From assembly GCA_018238155.1 (NCBI GenBank), contig JABCTZ010000046.1, forward strand, positions 256,001 through 320,000: a stretch of 64,000 bases of DNA, written 5' to 3'. This document shows positions 32,704-60,568 of the stretch, in pieces (position 1 is the first letter of the stretch; every line of letters begins with the position of its first letter). Origin of the DNA: Candidatus Heimdallarchaeota archaeon (GTDB taxonomy: Archaea > Asgardarchaeota > Heimdallarchaeia > JABLTI01). The notes under the pieces are model-generated. The model did no database searches and was not told where the DNA came from. It was given only the letters and a program-made list of their open reading frames with translations. A program made the translations under genes and the position numbers.

Positions 32704-33444
32704 TTATTGATATTCCATTATAGATAATTGCCCAGCGGAAACTGTCATAGCCATTGGTTTTCTGCTGAATGTATAAGAACCACGCATTTTAATGATTTTG
32801 ATAGTGCTAAATGCTTCATCTCCTATAGATACTCTGAGTACTCCATCTACAAGATGTTCAAGTGCTCTAATGTCATGCTCGTTATGAATATCTCTATGTA
32901 AAGACATCAACGTAACAGTTGCATCTTTTTTGTTACTTGCAATTCGGTTTTGAACAAATGACAGAGCAGGTCTCAATGTTTCACTTGCGAGTAAAACTGC
33001 TGATAAGCTATCAACAACACCTCTACATTGTATTTTTTGAGTTTGAGTGTGTAACATTGCTCTACGAATTGCTTCACTAATGGCTCGCGGTTGACTAATA
33101 TTATTGACGACATTCTTGAATTGAGAACGCATATCAGAATACCCATAAGGATTTGAGAAAGCATCAATATACACCATTCTTTCAGTTTCAAGCAGAATGT
33201 CAGCATTTACACCCAACGTTCGTAAATTATCAGCATAGTATTTGAATGGGTGTTCAGTACTCATTACCCACCCAGTTTCTCCTCCTCTCAAACCTTCTGT
33301 GAGAAAATTGAGTGTAATTAAATCAGACTCGACACCAATTTCATCTTCAACTAAAATAACTGATCCTCGAGGAATTCCACCACCGAATGCTGCGTCTAAT
33401 ATAGGTAATCCAAATCTTGCGGGTGCTGTTTCATTTTGCGCCAA
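32704..33444 (-). CDS. KaiC/RAD55-like RecA-fold protein with degenerate P-loop (Elp4/Elp6-like)
   Basis: GLPILD..FGGGIPRGS. Walker A is replaced by EDEIGVES; Walker B VVDSLS; HLVDGVL; IIKMRG retained. Confidence 0.85.
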   Translation of the reverse strand: MAQNETAPARFGLPILDAAFGGGIPRGSVILVEDEIGVESDLITLNFLTEGLRGGETGWVMSTEHPFKYYADNLRTLGVNADILLETERMVYIDAFSNPYGYSDMRSQFKNVVNNISQPRAISEAIRRAMLHTQTQKIQCRGVVDSLSAVLLASETLRPALSFVQNRIASNKKDATVTLMSLHRDIHNEHDIRALEHLVDGVLRVSIGDEAFSTIKIIKMRGSYTFSRKPMAMTVSAGQLSIMEYQ

Positions 33445-45643: not shown

Positions 45644-46582
45644 GTGAGCAATTTGAAAAAGATTAAGATTATTACAGATAGTACGTGTGATTTGACTATT
45701 GATGAATTGAATGAATTAGATGTTGACTTTGTTCCAGCATATGTAATCATTGAAGGTAAGAAATTCAAACAGAATGTAAATATTACCAATGATGAAGTGT
45801 ATCATCAGCTAATTGTTGAGAAGAAAAAGATTAGTTCCGCAGCATCTTCTCCAGGAGAATTTCACAAAGTTTATGTAAGAGCTCTCAAAGAAGCTGAATC
45901 AATTATTCTCTTAACTGCTCATGGAAAGCTCTCAGCAATGTATAACACTGCTAAAATGGTTGCAGAAAAATTCTTCCCAAAAAGAGATATTACTGTTGTT
46001 GACACAAAAACAGCTTCTTTTGCACATGCAATCCTTGTTCAAGAAGCAGTGCAATTAGTAAAACTTGGTAAATCAAAAGATGAAATAGTTGCTAGGTTAA
46101 GATTTCTTGCTGAAAACACAAAAGCATTACCTCTTTTAGATACTCTCGAATATCTCTATCGAGGTGGAAGAATTAAACTCTATCAAAGACTACTTGGAAA
46201 TCTCATCGGAATCAAAGCATTAGTTCTAATCGATAAAAAAGGCTCCAATATGGATGCAAAAATTAAAGGTAGAAAAAATGCTTTAATTCAACTAAAAATG
46301 TGTGGTTTACAAATCTTAGATCATTTGATCATTAAACGGTTATATGTTGCCTATACAAATAACAAAGAACTTGCAATCGAAGTTGCAGACTTTTTAATCG
46401 AGAACAGTCCTGACGATATTGAAATTTCAATTGGACAACTTGGATCCGTAATAGGAGTTCATGGAGGAAATGATGTTGTCGGTTTTGGCTTTGTTGGAGA
46501 TTACAATGTCAAAATGTTTACTGGTGTAGGTGAAACAGCTAAAGATTTCATAAATGAAAAATTACAAATTGTTAGGGGATGA
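45644..46582 (+). CDS. DegV/FakB fatty-acid-binding protein
   Basis: IITDSTCDL, LSAMYN, VVDTK, TLEYLYRGGRI, IGVHGG. Confidence 0.9.
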   Translation: MSNLKKIKIITDSTCDLTIDELNELDVDFVPAYVIIEGKKFKQNVNITNDEVYHQLIVEKKKISSAASSPGEFHKVYVRALKEAESIILLTAHGKLSAMYNTAKMVAEKFFPKRDITVVDTKTASFAHAILVQEAVQLVKLGKSKDEIVARLRFLAENTKALPLLDTLEYLYRGGRIKLYQRLLGNLIGIKALVLIDKKGSNMDAKIKGRKNALIQLKMCGLQILDHLIIKRLYVAYTNNKELAIEVADFLIENSPDDIEISIGQLGSVIGVHGGNDVVGFGFVGDYNVKMFTGVGETAKDFINEKLQIVRG

Positions 46583-48133
46583 GTCACTAGATTCATCCCT
46601 ATCAACCATTTTTTCAGAATATTGAGCAATGGTTATAGTCTTTACTTGTTCAGGATTTTCTGTTAAATTTGTGATGAGAGACAAGTATCTTGTTAGCATT
46701 TTCTCCGGAGCAATTGTTTTGAAACTTTTTATCACTTTTGCTTCTTTTTCTCCAATGCAACGTAGTTTAAGTTCTTGATCAGATATCTTTTCGAATAACA
46801 AACCAAGTTGGTATTTCTTTTTAATAATTGGATGAACTAATTTAAATGATAAATAAACGGCGTTTTGTGTCAAATCTTGTTGTGAATTCTCATCTGTTAA
46901 TAATTCGCGATATTTTTTCGGTAGAACCAATTTTTCAATATTTATTCTATTGACCGTTTCATAGACTTTTTGTTGAATATTCGAATCTATTTTGGTTAAT
47001 AATTTCGTGTTCAGGATAATATTGCTTAATTTTCCTGTTACATACGATACTGTATAGAGATTATGGTAGTCATTGTATTCTTCTTCAACACTTCTTGTAA
47101 CACATTGCCAATATGATGCTTCTTGCGATATCTTTACTTTCTTTTGAGATTCTACTTGTTCAATATCTTGGAATTCTTTAGTAATCAGTAAATCATCACT
47201 TTTGTGTAATTGTTCTTTGATATCAATGAGTTCTTTGTACTTTGACTTCAAAATGTTTCGAGTCATTCGATTCCACAAATCACCCCAATCAATGAAGAGG
47301 AAAAGAGCTATTATTCCTATACTTGCTATCCAGACTATAGCTGATAACCAAGTTGGAGGAGCATCTCCGGCTATTCCATCAGATGTTAAACCAAATGCCC
47401 AGAAAATTACTCCACCTGCACTTGTCCCTGCCAAGTATTTTGCTACTAGCCCAGTGCCAGTTGTAAGGGCAATTTTTCCTAAAAAGCACCAAATAATCGT
47501 TTTCCAAAGAGCATATCCTAACAATCCAATGAAAATTAATATTGCATCATCAGGCAATGGTGTTGCTGCAAAGAGAAAGATAATCAACGGTGCAAGACCT
47601 TTATCAACCCATTTTTGTGCTCGAGCAACTTGTTTTTCCATACTACCTTCAATTACTTTTTTACTTGCTCGTCCAATTAACCAAGCAGAAGCTTCACCAA
47701 GTGCAGCGCCGGCACCAGCTGCGATACCCATTAAAATTATTAGTGGTGCTGTCATTGATGGTCTTGTTGCTACTGCTACTAAAGCGATTGTATATGGCAC
47801 AGGGAAAATAACCGTTAAATTCCCAAAAATAGAGATAACAAATATTCCGAGAAAGATACCAAATAATCCTACTTTGCTCTCAAACCAATCTACAATGTCA
47901 CTCATTATCACTCCCATGTTTAACTTTAATGCTGCTAAGACGATTATTAATACAACAAATAATGAAAGAAAAATGATTGATGCTAATCTTTCTTTATCCT
48001 TTATTAGCCAACTAACTGCTCTTTTGAAAGGATTTTCACGTTCTTCGAATTCATATTCATTTCGTTGAGTAGAACTATAATTCAATTCCTCTTGTTCAAT
48101 AATTTGTTCAGATTCACGATTATTCTCAGACAT
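46562..48133 (-). CDS. VTT (DedA/VMP1/TMEM41) domain membrane protein with soluble C-terminal extension
   Basis: Re-entrant motifs IFPVPY, GAALGE...W.IGR and FAATPLPDD...G, then GK; about 230-aa hydrophilic C-terminal domain. Confidence 0.85.
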   Translation of the reverse strand: MSENNRESEQIIEQEELNYSSTQRNEYEFEERENPFKRAVSWLIKDKERLASIIFLSLFVVLIIVLAALKLNMGVIMSDIVDWFESKVGLFGIFLGIFVISIFGNLTVIFPVPYTIALVAVATRPSMTAPLIILMGIAAGAGAALGEASAWLIGRASKKVIEGSMEKQVARAQKWVDKGLAPLIIFLFAATPLPDDAILIFIGLLGYALWKTIIWCFLGKIALTTGTGLVAKYLAGTSAGGVIFWAFGLTSDGIAGDAPPTWLSAIVWIASIGIIALFLFIDWGDLWNRMTRNILKSKYKELIDIKEQLHKSDDLLITKEFQDIEQVESQKKVKISQEASYWQCVTRSVEEEYNDYHNLYTVSYVTGKLSNIILNTKLLTKIDSNIQQKVYETVNRINIEKLVLPKKYRELLTDENSQQDLTQNAVYLSFKLVHPIIKKKYQLGLLFEKISDQELKLRCIGEKEAKVIKSFKTIAPEKMLTRYLSLITNLTENPEQVKTITIAQYSEKMVDRDESSDSSPNNL

Positions 48134-48356
48134 TGATTATCTACCTGTTTAATCTTAATGAAATATACAATTAAGGTTTATATAAAATTAGTTTTTATAT
48201 TTACTGCAATAACTAGAATAATAAATATTTGCAAAGTCTATTCAATAAACGTTTTCAAAAGGGCCCGACAAAAAAAGAGCTATATAGCTCGATAGTACAA
48301 TTTTTAACTGATGAAGAATAAATAGTATCATCAAGTAATAATTAGTTAAACCTCCT

Positions 48357-50039
48357 TTGTGGCTGGAGGAAATTGGAGAATTAAACAGAATGGCTTTTAA
48401 AAGAAATGAAAAACAAAAGGGAATTCCCCTTGGAGATAACTTTGTTGACTTCACAACAAGAGTTGATAAGATTTCTCTTGAAACGTTAGTAGAGGTTTCT
48501 GCAAAGTATAATTGCAAACAAGAATTTGCCGGAGTTATTCATTTAGTATCAACTGATTTAAACATCACTCCTGAATTAATATTAAATGATCTCCAATACG
48601 AATTAAAAAGGCTTGAAAAAATTGGTGAAGAACTTCCTGAAATAGAAACATATTTCCATAAATTTGCAATTTCAGAAGGAAAATGGATTGCTTTTTTGAG
48701 AGGATCATATCCAAAGAATTTGATAACAGAAGGAAAAAAAATTCAAACTCAATTTACAAAAATAGGTAAAGTAAAAGGTAGCGATTTGATAACTTTAGCA
48801 ATGCAAATTATGATGGAAAGACAGTTTATCGCTGCAAATACAATACTACCTGTAATAGATAAATGGGTTGAAGAGCACTATGAATCTACAAATTTTGATG
48901 CAGCACTTCACATACTTAGAGGTTATTTAAAGAGAAATGACTTTGATGATATTATTAAACAAATGGAAGAAGCAAAAAAACAATTAGTACAACAAATTCA
49001 AATTTTAGGTGATATTTTAGCGAATGCTGAAAGTTCAAATTGGGTATTTCGCTCATTAATTGAAGTTGAACTTTTACATGAAGATTTGAGTCAAGATTTG
49101 GTAGAATTAACAAATAAAGGTGCAGCAGATATTGTTTTATGGATCGTATCAAAGAGCTATGAACAAACCACAGGAGACTTTACTTCGCAAGAAGATATGT
49201 CAAAATTGATTATGAGATTCCAACTTGAATCTGCCTTAGGTATCTCCTCTGCATCGCCCTTGGCAACATTAGAGTATGAATTATTATCTCTAAATTATAA
49301 AGATAATTTAATAAAGTCAAAATTAGTTGACGAGATGATTTTAAAAGCTTGGAAAGAAGCACGAATTGGTAATAACCCACTTGATATCGGCAGAGAGATC
49401 CTTGCCTTATTGATGGATTACAGTAATACACCACCATTATTTTTATCTAAATTACCAAGGCATTTTGCTTATATCTCAGAATTTTTTGAGAATGATAAAC
49501 TAAGACTAGCACGTGCTCTTGAAAAAGTTAAAATAAAAGGAAAGGAACCAACCGCAAAAGAAATGCAGAATGCGGTTATTCTTGATTATCTAATTATTTT
49601 TGCTAGAAACTTCATAGCAGGTAATATGAAAGCGGATGAAAAAGATCTCAATGTTCCAGATGAACCTAAGAGATTGGATCTAATGCCAGCAGAAAAAGAC
49701 ATCATTGATATGATTGATGCAGCAGTCCAAAGAGGCATTCGCTCCCAAAACAGAGAAAAAGCGATGAAAGTTCTATCAGCGCAAATTCTTTCCATGTATC
49801 AAAGATGTCTTAATCAAGTAAAGAATGAAGTAACTGTTGGAGAATGTATCCTTTATGGAATCTATAATTTAAATGGTATTGAAATATCAAGAGAAAAAGC
49901 CAGAAATTTGATTCTTGATCATTTCACTCGAATGAGAGTTTCAGCTTCTTCTTCGGGAAAGAAAAGAATTGATTCTGTAGTTCAAAAAGCAATTGCTATT
50001 GAAATTGAAGAAAAAATATTCAAAAGGGATATCAAATAA
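48357..50039 (+). CDS. Hypothetical all-helical soluble protein
   Basis: 560-aa ORF; probable start ATG 48390 after a GGAG motif; no motif recognised. Confidence 0.75.
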   Translation: MWLEEIGELNRMAFKRNEKQKGIPLGDNFVDFTTRVDKISLETLVEVSAKYNCKQEFAGVIHLVSTDLNITPELILNDLQYELKRLEKIGEELPEIETYFHKFAISEGKWIAFLRGSYPKNLITEGKKIQTQFTKIGKVKGSDLITLAMQIMMERQFIAANTILPVIDKWVEEHYESTNFDAALHILRGYLKRNDFDDIIKQMEEAKKQLVQQIQILGDILANAESSNWVFRSLIEVELLHEDLSQDLVELTNKGAADIVLWIVSKSYEQTTGDFTSQEDMSKLIMRFQLESALGISSASPLATLEYELLSLNYKDNLIKSKLVDEMILKAWKEARIGNNPLDIGREILALLMDYSNTPPLFLSKLPRHFAYISEFFENDKLRLARALEKVKIKGKEPTAKEMQNAVILDYLIIFARNFIAGNMKADEKDLNVPDEPKRLDLMPAEKDIIDMIDAAVQRGIRSQNREKAMKVLSAQILSMYQRCLNQVKNEVTVGECILYGIYNLNGIEISREKARNLILDHFTRMRVSASSSGKKRIDSVVQKAIAIEIEEKIFKRDIK

Positions 50040-50066
50040 TTAATTTATCCCTTTTTTAAATTATTT

Positions 50067-51251
50067 TTACTGAAGTGTTGCTAAAAGATCATTTGTTCTT
50101 TTAATCCCTTCAAGTATATCTTTCATTTCGCTTGCAAGTGAAATTCTAAGGTAATTTTCTTCAACTCCAAAAACAGAGCCAGCTGTTAAAGCGACTCCTT
50201 TCTCTTCTAGAATCTTTACTGCAAGCTCATTGGATTGCATAGAACCTTGGTATTTCATGAAAAGATAAAAAGCGCCTTTAGGTTTTCTACAAGAAAGATA
50301 ATCACATTTCTCAATCAATTCAAGAGCCTTATCACGGCGATTTTTATATTCAACAACCATTTCAATAGTTGGTTCTTCTAATTCAAGAGCTTTAATTGCT
50401 GCCCATTGGGTTGGTGTATTTACACAAGTGCTAATATTCTGTTGAATTTTATTCATAGAATCAACAAGCTCTTTGTTACCAATTGCATATCCAAATCTCC
50501 ATCCGGTCATAGCATGAGATTTACTTAAACCGTCAATAACTAAAGTTCGCTCCAATGATTGAGAGATTGATAGATATTGGTGAAATGTTCCTTCAAAAAT
50601 AATCTTCTTGTATATTTCATCAGTGATAATCATTAAATCGTTATCATTAGATAAATCATTGATGAATTTCAAAGTGTCTAAATCATAAATTGCACCAGTA
50701 GGATTACTGGGTGAATTAATTAGTATTGCTTTTGTAGTTTTATTGATTGCTTCTTTGATAGCTTCTCTTGGAAAACTAAAATCACCAAGAGGAGCTTGAA
50801 CGACTTTTGTTTCTGCACCAATATATTGAATTATTCCTGAATAACTTGGCCAAAAGGGGGAAATTACAACAATATTATCTCCTGGGTCAACTAGTGAAAC
50901 TAAGGCATTAAACAATGCTGCTTTTGCTCCTGGAGTGGTTATCACATTGCTTCTAGGGTTGATTTCTACACCAGTATCTTTTGAATGAATAGAAGCGATT
51001 TTTTCAAGCAAAGGTCGTATTCCCTTGGCAGATGTATAACCTGTTTTACCTTCTTTCATAGCATCATACGCAACCTCAATTATCTCGGTTGGCGTATTGA
51101 AATTCGGTTGACCAACTTCAAGATGAATAATATCCTTTCCAGTAGCTTCTAGGTCAGTTGATAAAATTTTCATTTTCAAAGTTCCACTAGCAGGAACACG
51201 AAGGGCACATTCTGAAAGTTTTTTATTTTTAGATGTCAAATGAAACACCAC
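50067..51251 (-). CDS. PLP-dependent aminotransferase class I/II (aspartate aminotransferase-like)
   Basis: GQPNF, NSPSNPTG, DEIY, SKSHAMTGWRFG, GAFY. Confidence 0.93.
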   Translation of the reverse strand: MVFHLTSKNKKLSECALRVPASGTLKMKILSTDLEATGKDIIHLEVGQPNFNTPTEIIEVAYDAMKEGKTGYTSAKGIRPLLEKIASIHSKDTGVEINPRSNVITTPGAKAALFNALVSLVDPGDNIVVISPFWPSYSGIIQYIGAETKVVQAPLGDFSFPREAIKEAINKTTKAILINSPSNPTGAIYDLDTLKFINDLSNDNDLMIITDEIYKKIIFEGTFHQYLSISQSLERTLVIDGLSKSHAMTGWRFGYAIGNKELVDSMNKIQQNISTCVNTPTQWAAIKALELEEPTIEMVVEYKNRRDKALELIEKCDYLSCRKPKGAFYLFMKYQGSMQSNELAVKILEEKGVALTAGSVFGVEENYLRISLASEMKDILEGIKRTNDLLATLQ

Positions 51252-51449
51252 AGATGAATACTTAACTGAATTTTTAGTTTTTGATTTGTTTTTAATGGGA
51301 ACCCATTATTGACAATCTAAATCAAACATACATTCTCATTTTTATTCATTACTATCTCTCAGCAATTATTCAATGAAAGTATATCTACTAATAGAGATTT
51401 TTACTCAAAATTCTTGCTGAAAAATTTTTATAGATTTGTTATTATATAG

Positions 51450-53108
51450 ATGAATAGTAAAAACAGAATATCCAAATCAGAAGAGGGCGGTTTAACTCTT
51501 ATGCCATGGTTTACCAAAGAAAAAAAGATTTCCTTAGAAGTGCTTTTAGAAGATCCTCCAACTGATGAAAAGAGTAGAGTAAACAATATTCACACAAGTC
51601 AAAATTCTAAACTTATTAGAGAAAAAATAAGAAGTTGGATAAAAGATAACCGGTTGGTTCTTTTCATTTGGATCCTTGCTTTAGCTTTAAGAATTATCTC
51701 AGCGATACTTAGCAAAGGATACATTCATCCTGATGAGCATTATCAATCAATTGAAGTTGTTTTTAACAAAATATATGGTTTTGGATTCGTTCCGTGGGAA
51801 TTTACCGAAGGTGCAAGATCATGGTTTTATCCGGGCATTGTTTATATCATATTTAAAGTAATGATATTTTTTGGAGCATCATCAATTGATTCAATTCTAA
51901 TCGGTGTTCGTTTATTTTCAGGTTTACTTTCAATGATATCTGTCATTGTTGCCTATTATTTCGGAAAGTTAATATTTAACAAAGAAGCTGGTTTATTTGC
52001 TACATTTTTCATTGCAGTTTGGTATGACTTTATTTTTTGGGCAACAAGAACAATGACTGACGGTTTAGCTATGAATTTTGTTTTTCTAGCAACATACCTC
52101 ATCTATAAAGGTGCTAATACAATAATAAACGATACTTCTGATACTAAAAAACAAAAACGGCAGTCTGTTGGATGTTTTATTTTTGCAGGGATGAGTATAG
52201 GAGTAGCGTTTATGTTCAAATTTCCGGCAGCGATTATTGCACTTCCATTGCTTATTTATTTAGTAATAAAGAAAAAATGGATTGGTATGTTTGTTTTTTG
52301 TTTTTCAATTCTATTTATTGTTATAATCCAAGGTTTAATTGATTTGTTTACTTGGGGAACATTCCTACATTCAGCAATAGTTTTTTTCAATTATAACATA
52401 ACAAGTGGTTCGAGTTCATTACATGGAACAGCACCCATTTATGCTTATCTTGGTTTATTTGCATACACTTATTCCTTTTTCGCATTAATGTATCTACTCT
52501 ACTTGGTCATTGGAACAAATAAAAATAAGAAAGCATTTTTCTTGATTGTGATCTCACTATTTTTTGTTCTAGTATTTAGCGTTATTGAGCACAAGGAATA
52601 TCGCTTCATATTACCTATTTTGCCATTGTTTGTCTTAATCGCAGCAAATGGCATGAATAGATATCCACAGTTTATAAAGAAAAAAAATCTTCGTAAAAGT
52701 GTTCATGTATTTACTACTTTATTCATTATTTTTAGTTCAGCTAGCATTGGTTTTTTTGACGCATCTTTTAGACCTAATTACAACTATTGCCAAACCTTTG
52801 ACTATGTAAAAAACCATGAAGAGATTACAACTGTAATTCTTATCAGAGAGAATATATTCAATACTCCTGGATACGCCTATTTAGGTTCTGAATTGCACAT
52901 TGATATAATATCTTGGTCTAAAATAGACAAAGTGTATTCAGAATTCAAGAATTCTTCAATTTGTTTTATTATGACAGAAGAAATTTTTGACAATAGACCG
53001 TGGATTGGTTTGACTTTTCAAAAAAACAATATCTCTTGTGTGTTCAGTAGTATTGGAATAATGAAACACAAAGAAGCAAAGCTATGCATATATCAAAAAA
53101 ATAACTGA
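51450..53108 (+). CDS. GT22 (Alg9/PIG-B/PIG-Z-Smp3) Dol-P-Man-type mannosyltransferase
   Basis: YIHPDEHYQSIE, PWEF..GARSW, TRTMTD, HKEYRFILP; about 11 TMs. Confidence 0.85.
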   Translation: MNSKNRISKSEEGGLTLMPWFTKEKKISLEVLLEDPPTDEKSRVNNIHTSQNSKLIREKIRSWIKDNRLVLFIWILALALRIISAILSKGYIHPDEHYQSIEVVFNKIYGFGFVPWEFTEGARSWFYPGIVYIIFKVMIFFGASSIDSILIGVRLFSGLLSMISVIVAYYFGKLIFNKEAGLFATFFIAVWYDFIFWATRTMTDGLAMNFVFLATYLIYKGANTIINDTSDTKKQKRQSVGCFIFAGMSIGVAFMFKFPAAIIALPLLIYLVIKKKWIGMFVFCFSILFIVIIQGLIDLFTWGTFLHSAIVFFNYNITSGSSSLHGTAPIYAYLGLFAYTYSFFALMYLLYLVIGTNKNKKAFFLIVISLFFVLVFSVIEHKEYRFILPILPLFVLIAANGMNRYPQFIKKKNLRKSVHVFTTLFIIFSSASIGFFDASFRPNYNYCQTFDYVKNHEEITTVILIRENIFNTPGYAYLGSELHIDIISWSKIDKVYSEFKNSSICFIMTEEIFDNRPWIGLTFQKNNISCVFSSIGIMKHKEAKLCIYQKNN

Positions 53109-53127
53109 TTTAAAAATAATAAAAATT

Positions 53128-53153
53128 ATCAACACTCTTTTCCAAGTGTTGAT
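53128..53153. terminator. Bidirectional hairpin between convergent genes
   Basis: ATCAACACT-cttttcca-AGTGTTGAT perfect 9-bp stem. Confidence 0.55.
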
Positions 53154-53192
53154 GGTAATCATTTCGTTATGAAAGAGATTTTAGACTATTAC

Positions 53193-53498
53193 TCAACCAA
53201 AGAGTGAGCTTAATCCAGATTCTTCTTCCTCTTCTTCTTCTTCTTCTGGTTCTGGGGCTGCTTTAGCTGGAGCGGCGGCAGCGGCGGCTGGGGAAGCAGC
53301 TACAGGAGCAGCGGCGGGCATTACAGCAGCAGTTTTGAGAGCCTCTTTGATGTCAACTTCACCAAGAGCAGCAACTAAACCTTTGATTCTGTTCTTGTCT
53401 GGAGTTAATCCAGCAGCAGTTAGTATTTCACCAATTGCTTTTTCAGTGACCTTTTTACCAGATGAATGTAATATTAAAGACGCATGAAGGTATTCCAT
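53193..53498 (-). CDS. rpl12: 50S ribosomal stalk protein P1 (L12p)
   Basis: MEYLHASLILH..., Ala-rich hinge, poly-Glu, C-terminal GLSSLFG. Confidence 0.95.
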   Translation of the reverse strand: MEYLHASLILHSSGKKVTEKAIGEILTAAGLTPDKNRIKGLVAALGEVDIKEALKTAAVMPAAAPVAASPAAAAAAPAKAAPEPEEEEEEEEESGLSSLFG

Positions 53499-53745
53499 TT
53501 TTGTTTTTCTCCAATTTTTTATACTATTTTTTTGTTCTAGTTTGATTTACAAGTACAAGTTACTTGCAACTATCTTGAGAAGGTTTTTGTTTCTTTTAAA
53601 AATCTTCTGTTGATAAACAAAAATACTGAACAATGCAATTTCACTTATATCAAATATTAAAACTATTGCTAAAGAAAAAATTAAATCCACAAGTATTAAA
53701 AACATGAATGAAAAATAGATTTTATACTATATCGAGGTTTAAACA

Positions 53746-54582
53746 ATGCCCCCAAAGAAAAAAAATCCTGAGAAAAAGAAGAAATCCATCCCAAAAGAGA
53801 AGATTATCAAAATGGTGAAAGATCAAGAATACGTTGATTTAGGAGAACCTTTTGGTGAGAGTGCGAGAAGATATCTTGCTTTTCAGTTAACAAAATTGAT
53901 AGATAAAAAGGAAATAACAGGAACGGTTATTACACCAGAAGGAGTTTTCATTTCTCTTTCAGCTTCCGAAGTGAAAGACATTGTTCGTTTAATTAAAGCC
54001 AAAGGCATTTCTAATCTAGAAAAACTTGCAGAAGAGAACAAGTGGAATTCAAAAGTAGTAACATTGATTGCAAAGTCACGAATCAACCTTATTCAAAGAA
54101 AAGACAACAAAGTAATCACAAGAGATTCTGCAAAAGATATTCTCTATCAAAGTGTAATTCAAGGTGTTGATATAGATATATACGAATTAGCAGAAGAATT
54201 ACAACTTAAGAAATCTATTACAAGGGAATTACTTCAATCATTAATTGATGATGGCAAGATCGAAGGTGTTTATGTAAAATCTTCCCATAAATTTCTACCA
54301 ATGGAAATGCTTGAAGAATCTATTAGAGAACTTATAGACGATTTGGAAATGCAAAAAGTTTCATCTGTAACTTTTACCGCAATAGCAGAAAATTACAGTA
54401 TTTCTGATGAACAAGTATACAATATTTTATTGAAGCTTCACAATGTGGGAGATATTGACGTTCAACTAAACATGGGTCAAAAAATTTGTTTAATCAAAGA
54501 AAATATCGAAACTGAGAAAATTATTGAAAGAATACCTGAAGAAGAGAAAAAATTAGACATTGAAGATTTAACTCAGAAATAG
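53746..54582 (+). CDS. Tandem winged-helix protein, DDRGK1/UFL1 (PCI-like WH)-like
   Basis: About four WH repeats (LIDKKEITG.., KGISNLEKLAEE, IDIYELAEELQL...LIDDGKIEG, VTFTAIAENYSIS); Lys-rich N-terminus. Confidence 0.7.
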   Translation: MPPKKKNPEKKKKSIPKEKIIKMVKDQEYVDLGEPFGESARRYLAFQLTKLIDKKEITGTVITPEGVFISLSASEVKDIVRLIKAKGISNLEKLAEENKWNSKVVTLIAKSRINLIQRKDNKVITRDSAKDILYQSVIQGVDIDIYELAEELQLKKSITRELLQSLIDDGKIEGVYVKSSHKFLPMEMLEESIRELIDDLEMQKVSSVTFTAIAENYSISDEQVYNILLKLHNVGDIDVQLNMGQKICLIKENIETEKIIERIPEEEKKLDIEDLTQK

Positions 54583-54703
54583 AAAGCCTACTAAAATGTA
54601 CAATATGTGGTTAAAAGAAAGTTTTTATGTAGAAGAAATTAAAGTGAATAAAGATTATTAATTTGTGTTAAGAATGCAGGTATAATTAATTGGAGGAAAA
54701 AAA

Positions 54704-55489
54704 TTGAGTGCGAAACCACCTAAAAAACTTAAAAAACCTAGAAAAATTCCTGATGAATATGAAATATTAGTAATTAAATTAACCATGGAACTCAAAAAAG
54801 AAGTTGGAAAAGAAATAGCAGCCTTACTTCTTGTTGGAAGCGTTGCGGATAATAACTACATGAAAGGTGACTCTGATTGCGATTTCTATTTAGTAATTAA
54901 GAAAGATAGAGATAAACAAGTAGAAATTCTCCAAAAGATTGGTCAAGTCAAAGCCAAGTTTGAGAATGATCCTCAGTATTCATCACTTCTGGATTTAATG
55001 GTCTTCTTTGAAGAAGATCTTAATGAGGAAAACATTAATGCTTCAAGTATTGTCAATTGGGTTCACATTTGGACAGGACAACAGGGAATCCTAAAAATTG
55101 GCGAAGAAAATCCATTTGATAACGTAAAAATCACTCCTTCAAAACTCAAAAAAGGAGCTACACAGATGTGTCTGGATAATGTCTTTGTTATGCGTGATGG
55201 TTTTGTAAACACTTCAGCAGGAAAGGACGAAGAATTAGCCTTTTATGCAAGCGATGCAGCAATTGGATGTGCTCAAGCATATTTGATTCACTTGGGAGAA
55301 AAGAAATTTAACAGATACAACATCCCTGAACTTTTCGCAGAAAAAAGTACTGTAAAAGTAGATTCAAATATAATTAAAAAAGCAAGAGATTATCGAGTAG
55401 GTGCAAAAATCGATGACATTCATGAATTCCTTGAAAAGTGTTACGATTTTGGCTGGGCATTATTAGAAAACATGCTAAAAGGTAAATAG
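54704..55489 (+). CDS. Pol-beta-type nucleotidyltransferase with C-terminal helical (HEPN-like/substrate-binding) domain
   Basis: LLVGSVA...GDSDCDFYLV (GS + DxD), third Asp in LLDLMV. Confidence 0.82.
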   Translation: MSAKPPKKLKKPRKIPDEYEILVIKLTMELKKEVGKEIAALLLVGSVADNNYMKGDSDCDFYLVIKKDRDKQVEILQKIGQVKAKFENDPQYSSLLDLMVFFEEDLNEENINASSIVNWVHIWTGQQGILKIGEENPFDNVKITPSKLKKGATQMCLDNVFVMRDGFVNTSAGKDEELAFYASDAAIGCAQAYLIHLGEKKFNRYNIPELFAEKSTVKVDSNIIKKARDYRVGAKIDDIHEFLEKCYDFGWALLENMLKGK

Positions 55490-55513
55490 AAATTTCAATG
55501 AAGGGAACGAAAT

Positions 55514-56179
55514 TTGGCAAGTGAAAAAATAATCGTTAGATTGAAGGACCTTATCGGTAAAACTGATTCACAAATTTACTTGATTATTGGTCCCCCTGGT
55601 TCAGGGAAGGAAGGATTTGCATTACAGTATTTAATTGATGGATTTGCTGAGAAGAATAATGGTATTTTTCTCACAACTGATAGCTTTCCAAAAGAGATAA
55701 CTGACAAGATGAAACGATTAGGTGTTGATCCTGCTACTTTTATCACTGCAAAACAATTACAATTCATTGATGTCTTCTCTTATCGTACTGGCGAAAGCAT
55801 AAAAGACAATGGCTTAACTGTAAATAGCATTCGAGAATTGACCAGTATTAGTGTAATCATCAAGAAGTTAATTGATTCTACTGAAAAACTTAGACTTGTG
55901 ATGAATACAATTTCCACAATATCTATTTATAATTCAGAAATAGCAATACTTGATTTCATTCAAGCACAAGTCGCAAGATTAAAGCAACACAACCATTGTG
56001 GAATAATCGTTGCTCAACAAGGTATGATGAATGAAAAAGTCATTCAAGGAATAAAAGCAATTGTTGATGGCGTTATTGAATTCCAATCAATTACTGACGA
56101 GAAAGGTGTATCTCAAAAAAGATTGAGAGTAGAATTTGCACCTAAAATTAAGAAGACTGGTTGGATCAATCTATACTGA
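55514..56179 (+). CDS. KaiC/RAD55-like ATPase
   Basis: Walker A GPPGSGKE, FIDVFS, Walker-B-like LVMNTIS, IVDGVIE; 24 bp after the NTase. Confidence 0.88.
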   Translation: MASEKIIVRLKDLIGKTDSQIYLIIGPPGSGKEGFALQYLIDGFAEKNNGIFLTTDSFPKEITDKMKRLGVDPATFITAKQLQFIDVFSYRTGESIKDNGLTVNSIRELTSISVIIKKLIDSTEKLRLVMNTISTISIYNSEIAILDFIQAQVARLKQHNHCGIIVAQQGMMNEKVIQGIKAIVDGVIEFQSITDEKGVSQKRLRVEFAPKIKKTGWINLY

Positions 56180-56511
56180 TAAACAACGCGTATTCCTAAT
56201 TTCGTTTATTTATTTTTTTTACTTATTCTTAAATAAAGAAAATATACTGTACATATTCTCAAATATTCGAACGTCTATTTTAATGGAGAAAAAATCACAG
56301 GCGCTTATTATCGTTGATACTGTCTTCTTTAGTCTTGACCTCATCATAGAGAATTATGTTTTTTACCATATCTATCATTAGAAAATAATAAAAGCTGTAA
56401 TCACCTAATATTTTGAAATCTCAAGGATTTTTTTTGAATCACATTTCATTGTATACAAACCTACTTATAGATTTAAATAGACCCTTGTAAAAACGTATCA
56501 AGTGGTTAACC

Positions 56512-57213
56512 ATGACAAATTGGTGGGAATATGTTCTAGCTTTATCCCCTTCTGTAGTAATTCTTGTTGCGTATTTACTTAATTACGTTCTGGGTAAAAA
56601 GAAGAACAAGCATTTTGTATTAGAAATGTTATCGAAAATAGCTGTTCCGTTAAATGATTATTGTGACTCATTTGAGAAAGTCACACAAGAAAAAGAGAGA
56701 TACCAATTAGTTTGTAAACCAAGTCAAGATTCTCCTTTGAAAGCAATGGTTGTTTTAGGAATCCCTATTGGTAGACCATTTCTCCTTCCTTTTATCTGGG
56801 ACAAAATTAGAAAACACAGAGACAAATATACTCTCTCAGCGAACTTGAAGAAAAGACCACCCTTTTCACTTGAAATTGTTTCGAGGAAACGAAAGAAGGT
56901 TCTAAAAGGTGATCAAGATTACTTCATGTCACTTAAAGAAGTAAATACAACAGGATTCCTCAATGAATTTTTCATCATTAAAACAAACAATGTTCGCTCT
57001 GCAACAAAACTGTTGTCAAATGAAAGTTTACTTAGACTTTTAGCAAAAACTCGTTCAGAAACTCTTTGGCTTTCATTAAGGTACGAGGTTAAAGAAGTTG
57101 GTATGCAATTTGAATCCATCTTTGAATATGAAGAAGAACAAATAGAGAACACTGTTGAATTGTTTTTAGAAGTAATTGATGCTATTCCATATCCGCGTAA
57201 AGGTAAATACTGA
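56512..57213 (+). CDS. N-anchored membrane protein, CCDC47/DUF1682 (PAT complex)-like
   Basis: Single N-terminal TM ending in LVAYLLNYVLGKKKN, followed by a soluble alpha/beta domain. Confidence 0.7.
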   Translation: MTNWWEYVLALSPSVVILVAYLLNYVLGKKKNKHFVLEMLSKIAVPLNDYCDSFEKVTQEKERYQLVCKPSQDSPLKAMVVLGIPIGRPFLLPFIWDKIRKHRDKYTLSANLKKRPPFSLEIVSRKRKKVLKGDQDYFMSLKEVNTTGFLNEFFIIKTNNVRSATKLLSNESLLRLLAKTRSETLWLSLRYEVKEVGMQFESIFEYEEEQIENTVELFLEVIDAIPYPRKGKY

Positions 57214-57247
57214 GACTAATAAATTATTAAGTCTCATTCTTCTTTTC

Positions 57248-58750
57248 TTATTCTTTTACTGAAAGAATTACTTCGGGTATTTTTTCAATGACATCAGTTG
57301 CAAGTAAGCTGTTACCAAAATCTTCTGCAGCAAACTCTCCTGCTTTTCCAGCTAAATAGGATGCTGCACTTGCTGCTCGAAATAGGTTTACATTTATTGC
57401 ACTTAGTGTTCCTAGAATTCCAGCTAAAACATCACCTGTTCCACCGACAGTCATTCCAACGTGACCAGTTCGATTGATTTTTGATGTTTGAGCATTAGAA
57501 ATAACATCGTATTTGCCCTTTAGGAGAATGGTAGTTTTATTTTTTTGAGCGATTTCAAAAACCTCTTCTTTCCTTTCGAACCAATTATTTGATATCTTTT
57601 TTCCGAAAAGAATTTTGAATTCACCCATATGAGGAGTAAGTACTACTTTTTTAGATTTCAAAATAGATAAATCAGTGCTTATAGCTTTCAGTGCATCTGC
57701 ATCTATTACTATCGATTTCTCTGAAGGTGTTCTCTTAATCACATCAAGTATAAACTCAAAAGTTTCAGGATTTTCACTTATACCAGGACCTATTACCATA
57801 CTATCAAATTTCTCTAACTGATCTAATATGGTATCAGAATGTTCCTTTGTTAGATAATCTCCCTTAAGTGATTTCACTATCATATTTGGTGAATCTGATC
57901 GCACAGATCTTGCTATGCTTTCCGGAATACATGTAACAACTAAATCTGCTCCTGTTCGTAATGCAGCTCGAGAAGCTAAAACGGGAGCCCCCGAGTATTT
58001 TATGCTCCCACCAACTACAAGGACCTTACCATTTTCTCCTTTATGAGAATCAGTTCTTCGTTTGGGAAATGTAGCACGTAAGTCACCTTTACCTACAAAA
58101 ATCTCTGCTTCAGGTGGAACACCTATTCTACAAATAGTTGTTTTTTCTTGCAAATCCTTTATTGTTAAGCAAGGTTTTGTATCATGAAAAGTTGCTATTT
58201 TATCCGCGTTAACCATCAATTTGGTTTTCTCAGGTATATCAGACCACATTCCTGAAGGCAAATCAACAGCAAGTGTGGGCTTGTTTGCAATGTTAATTAT
58301 TTTAATCACACTTTTAATTGGCTCATAAGGTTCATTTGTCAAACCAATGCCTAAGAGTGAATCGATGATTAAATCTACATCAAGTAATTTTTCCTTTAAT
58401 ATTTTTATCAAAGAAGAATCGGATATAATAGTTATCTCAATAGAATGCTCTAGCTGCTTTAAGATGTTAAAATTAGTTAGAGTCGCATGAGAGCGTATTT
58501 TAGATTTATGACCAACAAGGAATAATCGGACTTTTTTATTCATTGAAACAAGATGACGAGCGAGAACCATACCATCCCCTCCATTATTACCTGTTCCACA
58601 GCAAACTGCAATAAGTTTAGCATTAGGAAATTCTTTGATAGCAACTCTTGCTCCAGCTGCACCAGCATTTTCCATTAACTGTAAAACAGATAATCCTAAT
58701 TCCTCACTATTTTCATCAATAATTCGGACTTCTTCAGAAGTGATGACCAT
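57248..58750 (-). CDS. nnr: Bifunctional NAD(P)H-hydrate epimerase/dehydratase (NnrE-NnrD)
   Basis: LMENAG, GNNGGDG, DLPSG, HKGENG, GPG, DADAL, TPHMGEF, GGTGDVLAG. Confidence 0.95.
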   Translation of the reverse strand: MVITSEEVRIIDENSEELGLSVLQLMENAGAAGARVAIKEFPNAKLIAVCCGTGNNGGDGMVLARHLVSMNKKVRLFLVGHKSKIRSHATLTNFNILKQLEHSIEITIISDSSLIKILKEKLLDVDLIIDSLLGIGLTNEPYEPIKSVIKIINIANKPTLAVDLPSGMWSDIPEKTKLMVNADKIATFHDTKPCLTIKDLQEKTTICRIGVPPEAEIFVGKGDLRATFPKRRTDSHKGENGKVLVVGGSIKYSGAPVLASRAALRTGADLVVTCIPESIARSVRSDSPNMIVKSLKGDYLTKEHSDTILDQLEKFDSMVIGPGISENPETFEFILDVIKRTPSEKSIVIDADALKAISTDLSILKSKKVVLTPHMGEFKILFGKKISNNWFERKEEVFEIAQKNKTTILLKGKYDVISNAQTSKINRTGHVGMTVGGTGDVLAGILGTLSAINVNLFRAASAASYLAGKAGEFAAEDFGNSLLATDVIEKIPEVILSVKE

Positions 58751-58878
58751 TATTTGTACCCTTCAGTAAGTAGAATAACCATTTGTTCTAATAATAAATT
58801 ATTCTAATGAGCTCTAAAATCTTTTTACAATGAAATACAATCAATAATTGATTAAAAAAAGAGAAAATTACCAAAGAA

Positions 58879-60231
58879 CTAAATCTTTGGTTTGATAAAT
58901 TTATTTTCCATTAAACTAAATGTCATATCTCTGGAATGTTTGATTCGCTCTTCGGCCATTTTGTAGAGTTCTTTTTCTTCCATCTCAATGCGTGCAATAC
59001 CTTGCTCAATTGCTTTCATACCAACTCGAGTAGCTTCTAATGGGTAGACTTCCCATTCACTCATTTTTGGTGTGATATAATCAGCAGATAAGCCTTTTTT
59101 AATTGCTACATCAGCAAGTGCTTGTGCTGCAGCAATACACATTTCATCAGTGATGGTTGAAGCTTGAACATCTAAAGTACCTCTAAAGATACCAGGAAAT
59201 CCTAAGCTGTTATTAACCTGGTTTGGAAAGTCACTTCGTCCTGTACCGACAACTTTTGCTCCTGCTTCTTTCGCTTCCCAAGGCCATATCTCTGGCAATG
59301 GATTTGCACAAGCAAAAACAATTGAATCTGAAGCCATTTTAGAGACCCATTCTTTCTTAATTGTACCAGGTTCTGATTTGGATGCAGAAATAAGAACATC
59401 AGCTCCATCTGTAGCATTGCCAAAATCACCAGATACACCTTCACCATTGGTTTTTTGGGCAAGATCATATTTGAAAGTGTCATAATCTTTCCCATCAATG
59501 ATATCTTTACGATCTTTTGTAAGAATACCTTTGGAATCGCACATAACTATATTCTTTGGGTTTACACCAGCGGTTTCTAACATATATGCTGTTCTTGTGT
59601 TTGCAGAACCAACACCAAGCATAGCGATTTTTACTTGATCGATCTCTTTTCCGACAAATTTTAGTGCGCCAAATACACCTGCTAAAATAACTGCAGCTGT
59701 ACCTTGAGCATCATCATGCCAAACTGGAATATCCATCTCTTTGCGTAATGTTTCAAGAATTTTGTAACATTTTGGTTTGGAAAAGTCTTCAAGATTGATA
59801 CCACCGAAAGATGGTTGTAAAAGTTTAACTGTTCTAATAATTTCATCAGGGTCTTTGGTATCTAAACAAATAGGAACAGCATCTACGCCACCTAGGTACT
59901 TGAATAATAGAGCTTTACCCTCCATAACTGGCATAGCAGCTTCTGGACCAATATCACCTAAACCTAACACTCGTGTTCCATCAGAAACGACAGCAACAGT
60001 GTTCGCCTTGTTGGTATGTTTGAATACTTCATTTTTATCAGCTTCAATTGCTTTGCATGGTGCAGCTACACCAGGAGTATACCAAATACCAAAAGCATCA
60101 AAATCCCATATTGAACATTTTGGAACGGTTTGAATCTTTCCTTGATAATAAGGATGAAGCTTCATAGCAATACCAGCTGGTGCTTTAGCCTTTTTCAATA
60201 GTTCTTCTTTAGTTACTTTTTTATCTGTCAT
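58879..60231 (-). CDS. NAD(P)-dependent malic enzyme
   Basis: YTPGVA, DGTRVLGLG, PVMEGKA, INLED, HDDAQGT, ANPLPEI, TGRSDFPNQVNN. Confidence 0.95.
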   Translation of the reverse strand: MTDKKVTKEELLKKAKAPAGIAMKLHPYYQGKIQTVPKCSIWDFDAFGIWYTPGVAAPCKAIEADKNEVFKHTNKANTVAVVSDGTRVLGLGDIGPEAAMPVMEGKALLFKYLGGVDAVPICLDTKDPDEIIRTVKLLQPSFGGINLEDFSKPKCYKILETLRKEMDIPVWHDDAQGTAAVILAGVFGALKFVGKEIDQVKIAMLGVGSANTRTAYMLETAGVNPKNIVMCDSKGILTKDRKDIIDGKDYDTFKYDLAQKTNGEGVSGDFGNATDGADVLISASKSEPGTIKKEWVSKMASDSIVFACANPLPEIWPWEAKEAGAKVVGTGRSDFPNQVNNSLGFPGIFRGTLDVQASTITDEMCIAAAQALADVAIKKGLSADYITPKMSEWEVYPLEATRVGMKAIEQGIARIEMEEKELYKMAEERIKHSRDMTFSLMENKFIKPKI

Positions 60232-60568
60232 TATTGCAACAACTTCTCAAAATAAAGTTACGTTATTTCGGGACGTTCTTATTATATAAATGATTTTGCG
60301 ATTTGACTTAAATAATCTCTATCGATAATCTACAAATAAATGGCTACTCTTTTTCTTGAAATCAAGATGAAAAAGTAATTTTCAGATTATCAAGAAAATG
60401 AGAAATAGCTAATTGAGAACAATCAACTTTGATAAGATTTCTATCCAATTAAAATACTAAACGCTTTGAATTATTCAATAAAAGACTATAGTAGCTTATT
60501 TAATATAAGTTAAATTTCAATTATTGAAATAGATAGAATTTCTATTATTAGAAAGTACAAACATAAAT

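Follow-up and report, generated by a model that had tools for sequence, protein, structure and literature searches.

In eukaryotes, multipass membrane proteins are built at the endoplasmic reticulum (ER) by a machinery with CCDC47 at its core. The eukaryotic protein is described as a subunit of the PAT complex and of the multipass and SND3 translocons (PDB 6W6L chain 7, 7TM3/7TUT chain 4 and 9I78 chain 4). In the literature that we searched it is treated as eukaryotic only: archaeal CCDC47 is not mentioned, and none of the publications found there connects Asgard archaea with CCDC47, the PAT complex or the multipass translocon. Asgard proteins linked to the translocon, such as the oligosaccharyltransferase (OST) and the translocon-associated protein complex (TRAP), have their main catalogue in a study that also places the Heimdallarchaeia closest to eukaryotes, and CCDC47 is not listed in its text or in the supplements examined (Eme et al. 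2023). Here we describe a CCDC47-like gene in a 64,000-nucleotide stretch of contig JABCTZ010000046.1 from Candidatus Heimdallarchaeota archaeon, referred to at its full length as the window. The gene stands behind the genes of a Pol-beta-type nucleotidyltransferase (NTase) and of a KaiC/RecA-fold protein with a degenerate P-loop (pseudo-KaiC). The analysed genome has 4.08 Mb and is 90.7% complete, and the window is AT-rich, with about 32% GC.

A CCDC47 homologue in Heimdallarchaeia

Orthologues of the window CCDC47-like protein were collected from 35 of 41 related genomes, and their archaeal alignment and the profile made from it are denoted by A1. Families are denoted by f, the genus of the window genome (within f1) by g1, loci of relatives by L and genomes by G. 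The Pfam cut-offs used were 27.7 bits for PF07946, 21 for PF01909, 33.9 for PF09335, 23.2 for E3_UFM1_ligase (PF09743) and 27.8 for DDRGK (PF09756). With 27.9 bits, the window protein passes the PF07946 cut-off, and its match is confined to the 46 profile positions (9–54) proximal to the transmembrane (TM) helix. Orthologues from f2 match the same profile from end to end, at positions 8–316 of 326 and with 32.6–36.7 bits, and 10 of the 18 members of the CCDC47-like family match it altogether.

Neither the A1 profile nor an f2 protein alone matched CCDC47 in searches of the PDB sequences, so the link at sequence level needed Pfam, a profile search of 1.8 billion proteins and hhalign. The archaeal-only hidden Markov model (HMM), run against 1.84 billion representatives, finds longer proteins in which the match begins 80–190 residues in, among them P0137 (E 7.5e-13) and P0158 (E 2e-8). 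Two of the retrieved proteins match the solved human, rabbit and Chaetomium CCDC47 chains with values up to 1e-31, by which chains 6w6l_7, 7tm3_4/7tut_4 and 9i78_4 were identified as CCDC47. Aligned with hhalign, the archaeal and the eukaryote-type CCDC47 alignments matched at 99.4% (E 1.5e-21) over 216 columns, and they have the motif Y-x-x-N-Y-x-x-G-K-x-K-N in common.

The structure model agrees with this assignment. The AlphaFold2 (AF2) model of the CCDC47-like protein reached a predicted local distance difference test (pLDDT) of 88 and a predicted TM-score (pTM) of 0.83, and its best three Foldseek matches were all CCDC47 (E 3.7e-11 to 1e-5), with a TM-score of 0.73 to 7tm3_4. By VIA the model aligned to 7tut_4 with Z 19.1 and a root-mean-square deviation (rmsd) of 3.0 over 222 residues, spanning residues 135–404 of the 483 of CCDC47, and to 9i78_4 with Z 18.4. 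The next structural match after CCDC47 in an exhaustive scan was the mycobacterial TtfA, at Z 11.6.

The window protein consists of an N-terminal TM helix, a basic GKKKNK motif and a cytosolic alpha/beta domain; throughout A1 an N-terminal hydrophobic helix is followed by G-[KR]-x-K-N. No luminal acidic N-terminal domain or signal peptide is present in the window protein, as the TM helix begins at about residue 5 with nothing before it, and no C-terminal coiled coil or K/E-rich extension is present either, as residue 233, the last one, directly follows the globular domain. The f2 orthologues, of about 300 aa, carry a K/E-rich C-terminal tail. A search for longer, fused CCDC47-like forms found none, which is weak evidence. 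The hydrophobic segment followed by GKKKNK points to the N-out/C-in orientation of the eukaryotic protein. The CCDC47-like protein is thus a true homologue of the eukaryotic PAT-complex and multipass-translocon subunit, reduced to the TM helix, the basic motif and the alpha/beta domain.

With the A1 profile the gene was detected in 97 of the 301 Asgard genomes surveyed, the numbers being sampled counts and not proofs of absence. Within the Heimdallarchaeia it was present in f1 (9/9), f2 (26/31), f3 (22/22), f4 (6/9), f5 (1/1), f6 (3/3) and f7 (2/2). It was also found in families of other classes (f9, f12, f13, f15, f20, f22, f23 and f24), and was scarce or undetected in the samples of f11 (2/77), f14 (0/69) and f8 (0/4).

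The NTase and pseudo-KaiC genes beside it

About 50 genomes were compared in the surroundings of the CCDC47-like gene, over up to 20 kb, with open reading frames (ORFs) labelled by iterated HMM searches seeded with the window proteins. The order NTase, KaiC-like, CCDC47-like, all in one direction, is conserved in four Heimdallarchaeia families: f1, f4 (L040), f5 (L023) and f6 (L025, L060 and L061). Outside the window the gaps within this co-directional trio are 10–166 bp, for instance 14 and 49 bp in L023 and 43 and 89 bp in L040. At the other f4 loci (L038, L039 and L069) the trio is rearranged yet still adjacent: in L039 the CCDC47-like gene comes before the KaiC-like gene, with the NTase two genes further, and in L038 and L069 the pair is divergent. 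The NTase is followed directly by the CCDC47-like gene, after 14 bp, in f9, which belongs to another class, and in f15, of another Asgard class, the CCDC47-like gene lies next to the KaiC-like gene in divergent orientation. In f2 the NTase/pseudo-KaiC pair is intact, with gaps of 9–17 bp, but lies far from the CCDC47-like gene. From the arrangements in f2, f9, f15 and f4 it follows that all three pairwise adjacencies occur across different lineages, and the CCDC47-like proteins of those lineages are only about 20% identical.

Among the ten genes flanking the CCDC47-like gene of the window, only those for the NTase, pseudo-KaiC and the NAD(P)HX epimerase/dehydratase Nnr recur near it outside f1. 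Nnr is convergent with the CCDC47-like gene, and is found within 0–2 genes of it or of the NTase in f1, f2, f4, f5, f6 and f9. NTase orthologues were detected in 75 of the 301 genomes, only in families that bear the CCDC47-like gene (f1–f7, f9, f22 and, weakly, f24), and in none of the 77 f11 or 69 f14 genomes. The f3 genomes have up to two copies of each gene, with two NTases in 17 and two CCDC47-like genes in 12 of the 22 sampled. A complex prediction for the NTase, pseudo-KaiC and residues 30–233 of the CCDC47-like protein scored 0.00; it was run without controls and is evidence neither way.

Other genes were seen beside the CCDC47-like gene in particular families. In f6 it is followed on the same strand by the gene of a soluble 110-aa protein of no known family (L025:4624-4956 and L060:6211-6540), whereas the following gene in f9 and f22 encodes a zinc-ribbon protein (about 190 aa). 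In f11, f13, f17 and f20 it is adjoined by the gene of an unannotated protein, about 200 aa long (cluster c145). The recurrent neighbour clusters of other classes, c145, c111 and c58, proved unrelated to the NTase, pseudo-KaiC and CCDC47 alignments by hhalign.

The NTase of the window starts with TTG, and GGAGG is located 8 nt before it. Over 12 orthologues G45, D58 and D97 of its motif are invariant and S46 and D60 nearly so, and it is probably catalytically active, judging from these residues. Against NCBIfam it gave weak matches to ANT(9) and to archaeal CCA-adding enzymes, far below the cut-off of any named family, and NCBIfam and the ESM Atlas together place both the NTase and pseudo-KaiC in broad superfamilies only. 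The f6 orthologues (L025:1830-2963, L060:3446-4558 and L061:7497-8579) carry a C-terminal extension of about 110 aa that resembles helix-hairpin-helix domains (…RGIGKKTRDQL…GIS…), a hint that the f6 enzyme may bind or target nucleic acid.

The window pseudo-KaiC, which scored 63 bits against TIGR03877, far below its cut-off, has GPPGSGKE at the Walker A and LVMN at the Walker B position. The canonical S/T after the Walker A lysine was found in 0 of the 19 aligned KaiC-like members. Walker A is fully degenerate in f4, f5 and f6, with GLKSEPKN and ADITYTRD among the variants outside the window, and the Walker B aspartate is replaced by N or W in f1, f4 and f6. The protein is thus a probable pseudo-ATPase. 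As the P-loop is never canonical and the Walker B aspartate is missing in g1, the regulation by KaiC signalling put forward in the original prediction is doubtful, and unlikely in the form in which it was proposed. Further upstream in the window, at a distance of about 23 kb (32704-33444, minus strand), there is another degenerate KaiC-like gene, with VEDEIGVESD at the Walker A position; its counterparts in f3 are found at a constant 32–35 kb from the CCDC47-like gene.

We confirmed intergenic gaps of 121 bp before the NTase (54583-54703) and of 332 bp before the CCDC47-like gene (56180-56511). The NTase and pseudo-KaiC genes are 24 bp apart and are probably co-transcribed. About 218 bp of the longer gap are absent from the closest relatives; a search of the own genome found this insert in a single copy, which ruled it out as a repeat. 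A conserved block, GATAGATTTAAATAGACCCTTGT, is present in the window and L013 and partly in L015. The TATA-box-like element, which is located just downstream of the insert and conserved in relatives from the genus, probably gives the CCDC47-like gene a promoter of its own, and so the unit is more likely co-localised or co-regulated than strictly one transcript. An 81-aa ORF at 56136-56381 was rejected as a gene, as it overlaps the end of pseudo-KaiC, falls within the insert, which is not conserved, and is missing from relatives. An Rfam scan of positions 46000-60500 matched no RNA family.

Neighbours confined to the genus

Table 1. Genes and other features around the CCDC47-like gene, by position in the window
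Feature	Position	Strand	Evidence
GT22 (Alg9-like) GT-C glycosyltransferase, 552 aa	51450-53108	+	PF03901 187 bits, profile positions 2-413 of 414
Ribosomal stalk protein P1, 101 aa	53193-53498	-	PF00428 54.9 bits
UFL1/DDRGK1-like winged-helix (WH) protein, 278 aa	53746-54582	+	four tandem winged helices
Pol-beta-type nucleotidyltransferase (NTase), 261 aa	54704-55489	+	PF01909 21.2 bits; PF18765 21.0
KaiC/RecA-fold protein (pseudo-KaiC), 221 aa	55514-56179	+	PF06745 82.8 bits; degenerate P-loop
Extra spacer, about 218 bp	56180-56397		alignment with L013 and L015 spacers
TATA-box-like element TTTAAATA	56472-56479	+	33 nt before the CCDC47-like ATG
CCDC47-like protein, 233 aa	56512-57213	+	PF07946 27.9 bits, profile-profile alignment and structure model
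Bifunctional NAD(P)HX epimerase/dehydratase (Nnr)	57248-58750	-	PF01256 180.6, PF03853 128.8 bits
VTT/DedA-domain membrane protein, 523 aa	46562-48133	-	PF09335 32.5 bits, below cut-off 33.9

Six of the genes in Table 1, from GT22 to the CCDC47-like gene, had been read as a candidate module. Their positions and strands, with the last four co-oriented, were confirmed, and all six homology assignments survived testing, that of the CCDC47-like protein being the strongest. By Pfam alone, support was strong for GT22, P1 and KaiC and marginal for the NTase and the CCDC47-like protein. As for the linkage, the NTase, KaiC-like and CCDC47-like genes do recur together across families and classes, but GT22, P1 and WH adjoin them only in g1 and are scattered in related genomes. 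The VTT protein that had been noted upstream is present at 3.3 kb, but its PF09335 match is below the cut-off and it is syntenic in the genus only, adjoining the block in L013–L016. The whole block from VTT to Nnr is syntenic within g1, where identities of 60–90% make this uninformative. Outside f1, none of VTT, orf560, an aminotransferase, GT22, P1, WH or a malic enzyme was found near the CCDC47-like gene. Here orf560 is a 560-aa ORF at 48357-50039 on the plus strand with no Pfam or NCBIfam match, syntenic in the genus at 55–88% identity. NCBIfam gave no match for the WH, CCDC47-like, VTT and GT22 proteins either.

The WH protein scored 26.7 bits against PCI, and fell below the cut-offs of E3_UFM1_ligase (22.0 bits) and DDRGK (17.8 bits). 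Its AF2 model (pLDDT 81) matched best, by Foldseek, the engineered UFL1-DDRGK1 chimera 8b9x (E 2.8e-10 over 253 columns), and after it UFL1 as solved on the 60S subunit (8qfc_B and 8ohd_A). The first family unrelated to these, the generic tandem-WH protein SelB, came five orders of magnitude behind at 5.5e-5. By VIA the alignment with 8b9x had Z 13.0 over 236 residues, and its rmsd of 10 Å is due to flexible linkers. At the level of predicted architecture, the DDRGK1/UFL1-like assignment stands. Its lysine-rich N-terminus (MPPKKKNPEKKKK...) is hydrophilic, and neither a hydrophobic segment nor a TM anchor is found there.

Strong orthologues of the WH protein, some with PF09743 matches, were found only in g1, and members of its family reach the PF09743 cut-off. 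In the own genome there was no genome-level match of PF09743 at threshold, and UFM1 (PF03671) was not found in this 90.7% complete genome; no search for UFC1 was made. The missing UFM1 agrees with a published report of UFM1 and UFC1 only in eukaryotes, in which an Asgard origin of UFL1 and DDRGK1 has already been proposed (PMC10183829). A more widespread WH paralogue of 269 aa, 23% identical and not detected in the own genome, passes the PF09743 cut-off with 29.2 bits (L034:9140-14012, also L033, L035 and L037). In L034 its gene has the same orientation as that of an OST3/OST6-like membrane protein and diverges from an operon encoding an intact KaiC ATPase, a Roadblock/LC7 protein, a FIST protein and a Ras-like GTPase. 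This type of neighbourhood resembles a second, better conserved UFL1-like one.

The P1 gene, head-to-head with the WH gene, is the only one in the genome, and P0 is encoded on contig C17 (103229-104194). The acidic tail of P1, EEEEEEEEESGLSSLFG, ends with ...EEESGLSSLFG and fits G-L-x-x-L-F-G. In the closed f2 genomes G016 and G026, P1 has its canonical place as the next gene behind P0, and the CCDC47-like gene is about 1 Mb away, which implies that P1 was relocated in the lineage of the window. Of the four long loci of the genus, L015 and L016 have GT22 at this site, and it is absent in L013, the closest relative, and in L014. The local enrichment in homologues of ER-ribosome factors is thus seen in one genus only, and we consider the placement of P1, WH and GT22 a genus-level accident and not a conserved module.

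Interpretation and comparison with known systems

The explanation to which we incline, with a confidence that is only somewhat above even, is a genus-specific juxtaposition around an old trio, in which the NTase and pseudo-KaiC are partners of the CCDC47-like protein and the three may act at membrane-bound ribosomes. The locus would then have three parts: an old unit of Pol-beta NTase, degenerate KaiC-fold protein and CCDC47-like protein; a lineage-specific UFL1/DDRGK1-like WH paralogue, head-to-head with the relocated P1 gene; and a variably present GT22 glycosyltransferase. The CCDC47-like protein would anchor at the cytoplasmic face of the membrane and work there with the probably active NTase and with pseudo-KaiC, the latter probably not as an ATPase but as a scaffold or binding subunit. 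By analogy with CCDC47 at the eukaryotic translocon (PMC7505659, PMC9630114), they may act at SecYEG-docked ribosomes. A bolder version, which we find improbable, is that the trio was the archaeal forerunner of the eukaryotic ribosome-translocon accessory layer. The CCDC47-like protein would anchor on SecYEG-bound ribosomes, and the pair recruited by it would nucleotidylate a target associated with the ribosome, tRNA or nascent chain, and so set a mark for quality control or recycling that predates UFMylation. To this system g1 would have added a UFL1/DDRGK1-like large-subunit clamp and P1.

Several observations weigh against the explanation to which we incline. The CCDC47-like gene is apart from the NTase/pseudo-KaiC pair in f2, f3 and f7. 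It has a Ras-like GTPase gene directly upstream on the same strand in f2 (L018–L022 and L024) and is convergent in f3 (L027, L028 and L030–L032) with two Arf-like GTPase genes, which also match the signal recognition particle (SRP) receptor beta profile PF09439. In several further Asgard families the CCDC47-like gene occurs and the NTase does not, and as the two genes essentially belong to the Heimdallarchaeia, phylogeny confounds their phyletic nesting. The window protein is also without the K/E-rich extension found in the f2 orthologues and in eukaryotic CCDC47. Asterix (PF03669) was not matched in the own genome, a result that is uninformative as the same profile matched no control genome either.

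Moreover, Nnr, an opposite-strand housekeeping repair enzyme, is as persistent as the NTase and pseudo-KaiC, so passive retention of synteny could explain part of the pattern. Taken further, the NTase, pseudo-KaiC, CCDC47-like and Nnr genes might form no functional unit but a slowly decaying ancestral Heimdallarchaeia synteny block, each protein acting independently. The persistence of Nnr near the unit in f1, f2, f4, f5, f6 and f9 without a plausible link to it, the dispersal of the trio in the families just named and the CCDC47-like gene's own conserved TATA-like element all fit such a block. We regard it as unlikely, if a serious contender, because the adjacency outlasts inversions and order changes in f4 (L038 and L039), the NTase-CCDC47-like adjacency with its 14-bp gap recurs in another class (f9), and the NTase/pseudo-KaiC pair stays joined even after moving elsewhere. 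The genes are also co-directional, with gaps of mostly 10–110 bp, while all other flanking genes differ.

The broader claim of the original prediction, that all six genes and VTT make one module handling translocon-docked ribosomes, we hold to be very improbable. The UFL1/DDRGK1-like and CCDC47-like homologies are both real, and their eukaryotic counterparts act at the ribosome-Sec61 junction (titles of 8qfc/8ohd; PMC9630114); a genus-specific WH paralogue and a relocated P1, head-to-head beside the trio, make a curious coincidence, and the distant WH paralogue adjoins an OST3/6-like gene. Nevertheless, WH, P1 and GT22 are linked to the trio only in g1 and lie dispersed in all other families searched, even L013 and L014 have no GT22 here, VTT is under the Pfam cut-off and syntenic in the genus only, and a single lineage cannot show selection for linkage. 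We give as little credence to the idea that the NTase and pseudo-KaiC are a signalling, stress or defence-type module, comparable to MNT-type systems or KaiC hubs, to which the CCDC47-like protein is a mere membrane tether with no link to the ribosome or SecYEG. The NTase does resemble NTases of the ANT(9)/KNTase and minimal types, KaiC-like proteins commonly take part in archaeal signalling, and the second WH paralogue is divergent from an active KaiC-Roadblock-FIST-Ras operon; TtfA, moreover, shows that the CCDC47 cytosolic fold exists in bacteria with no known ribosome role. However, the genes occur in a single copy (two in f3), in almost all Heimdallarchaeia and in a conserved chromosomal context, unlike mobile defence or toxin-antitoxin modules, and pseudo-KaiC is without the P-loop that KaiC-type phosphosignalling needs.

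A minimal homologue of CCDC47 that is nearly universal in the sampled Heimdallarchaeia dates one more translocon accessory factor before eukaryogenesis and offers a simple version to study, and its conserved genomic partners provide a concrete, testable hypothesis on the ancestral function of CCDC47. The pairing of UFL1/DDRGK1 with CCDC47 and P1, on the other hand, is local to a single genus, and it would be wrong to cite it as a conserved module.

Compared with described systems, the NTase shares with the Pol-beta NTases (PF01909; KNTase/ANT(9)-like and MNT) the G-S...D-x-D...D signature and the arrangement of an NTase domain at the N-terminus with a helical domain behind it, and differs from KNTase/ANT(9)/MNT-type enzymes in being a conserved single-copy chromosomal gene paired with pseudo-KaiC. 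The latter has the fold and length of archaeal single-domain KaiC/RecA-like ATPases (ArlH/FlaH, TIGR03877 type and DUF7504), and its nearest ESM Atlas clusters are archaeal KaiC/DUF7504; unlike them, it has degenerate Walker motifs and its own conserved F-x-D-x-F-S-x-R and D-L-T-x-L-S. UFL1-DDRGK1 is the scaffold of the UFM1 E3 ligase (8B9X, 8QFC, 8OHD and 8C0D). The four winged helices of the WH protein align along the whole chimera of the two, whereas the protein itself is a single 278-aa chain, a genus-restricted paralogue below both Pfam cut-offs, without a TM anchor or the C-terminal half of UFL1, and its individual WH domains are generic.

The mycobacterial TtfA (trehalose monomycolate transport factor A, 6T84) combines an N-terminal membrane anchor with the same alpha/beta domain (159 residues aligned) and is likewise an accessory factor of a membrane machine. 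At 7% identity no sequence-level link to it was found, and this bacterial protein works with MmpL3 and not with a translocon. In comparison with eukaryotic CCDC47, the archaeal protein is without a signal peptide or an acidic luminal domain, the C-terminal coiled coil is missing from the window protein, and the archaeal gene adjoins those of the NTase and pseudo-KaiC, which are without known counterparts at the eukaryotic translocon. What the archaeal and eukaryotic proteins share is the single TM helix, the Y-x-x-N-Y-x-x-G-K-x-K-N motif and the same cytosolic alpha/beta domain, to which the f2 orthologues, like eukaryotic CCDC47, add a K/E-rich C-terminal tail.

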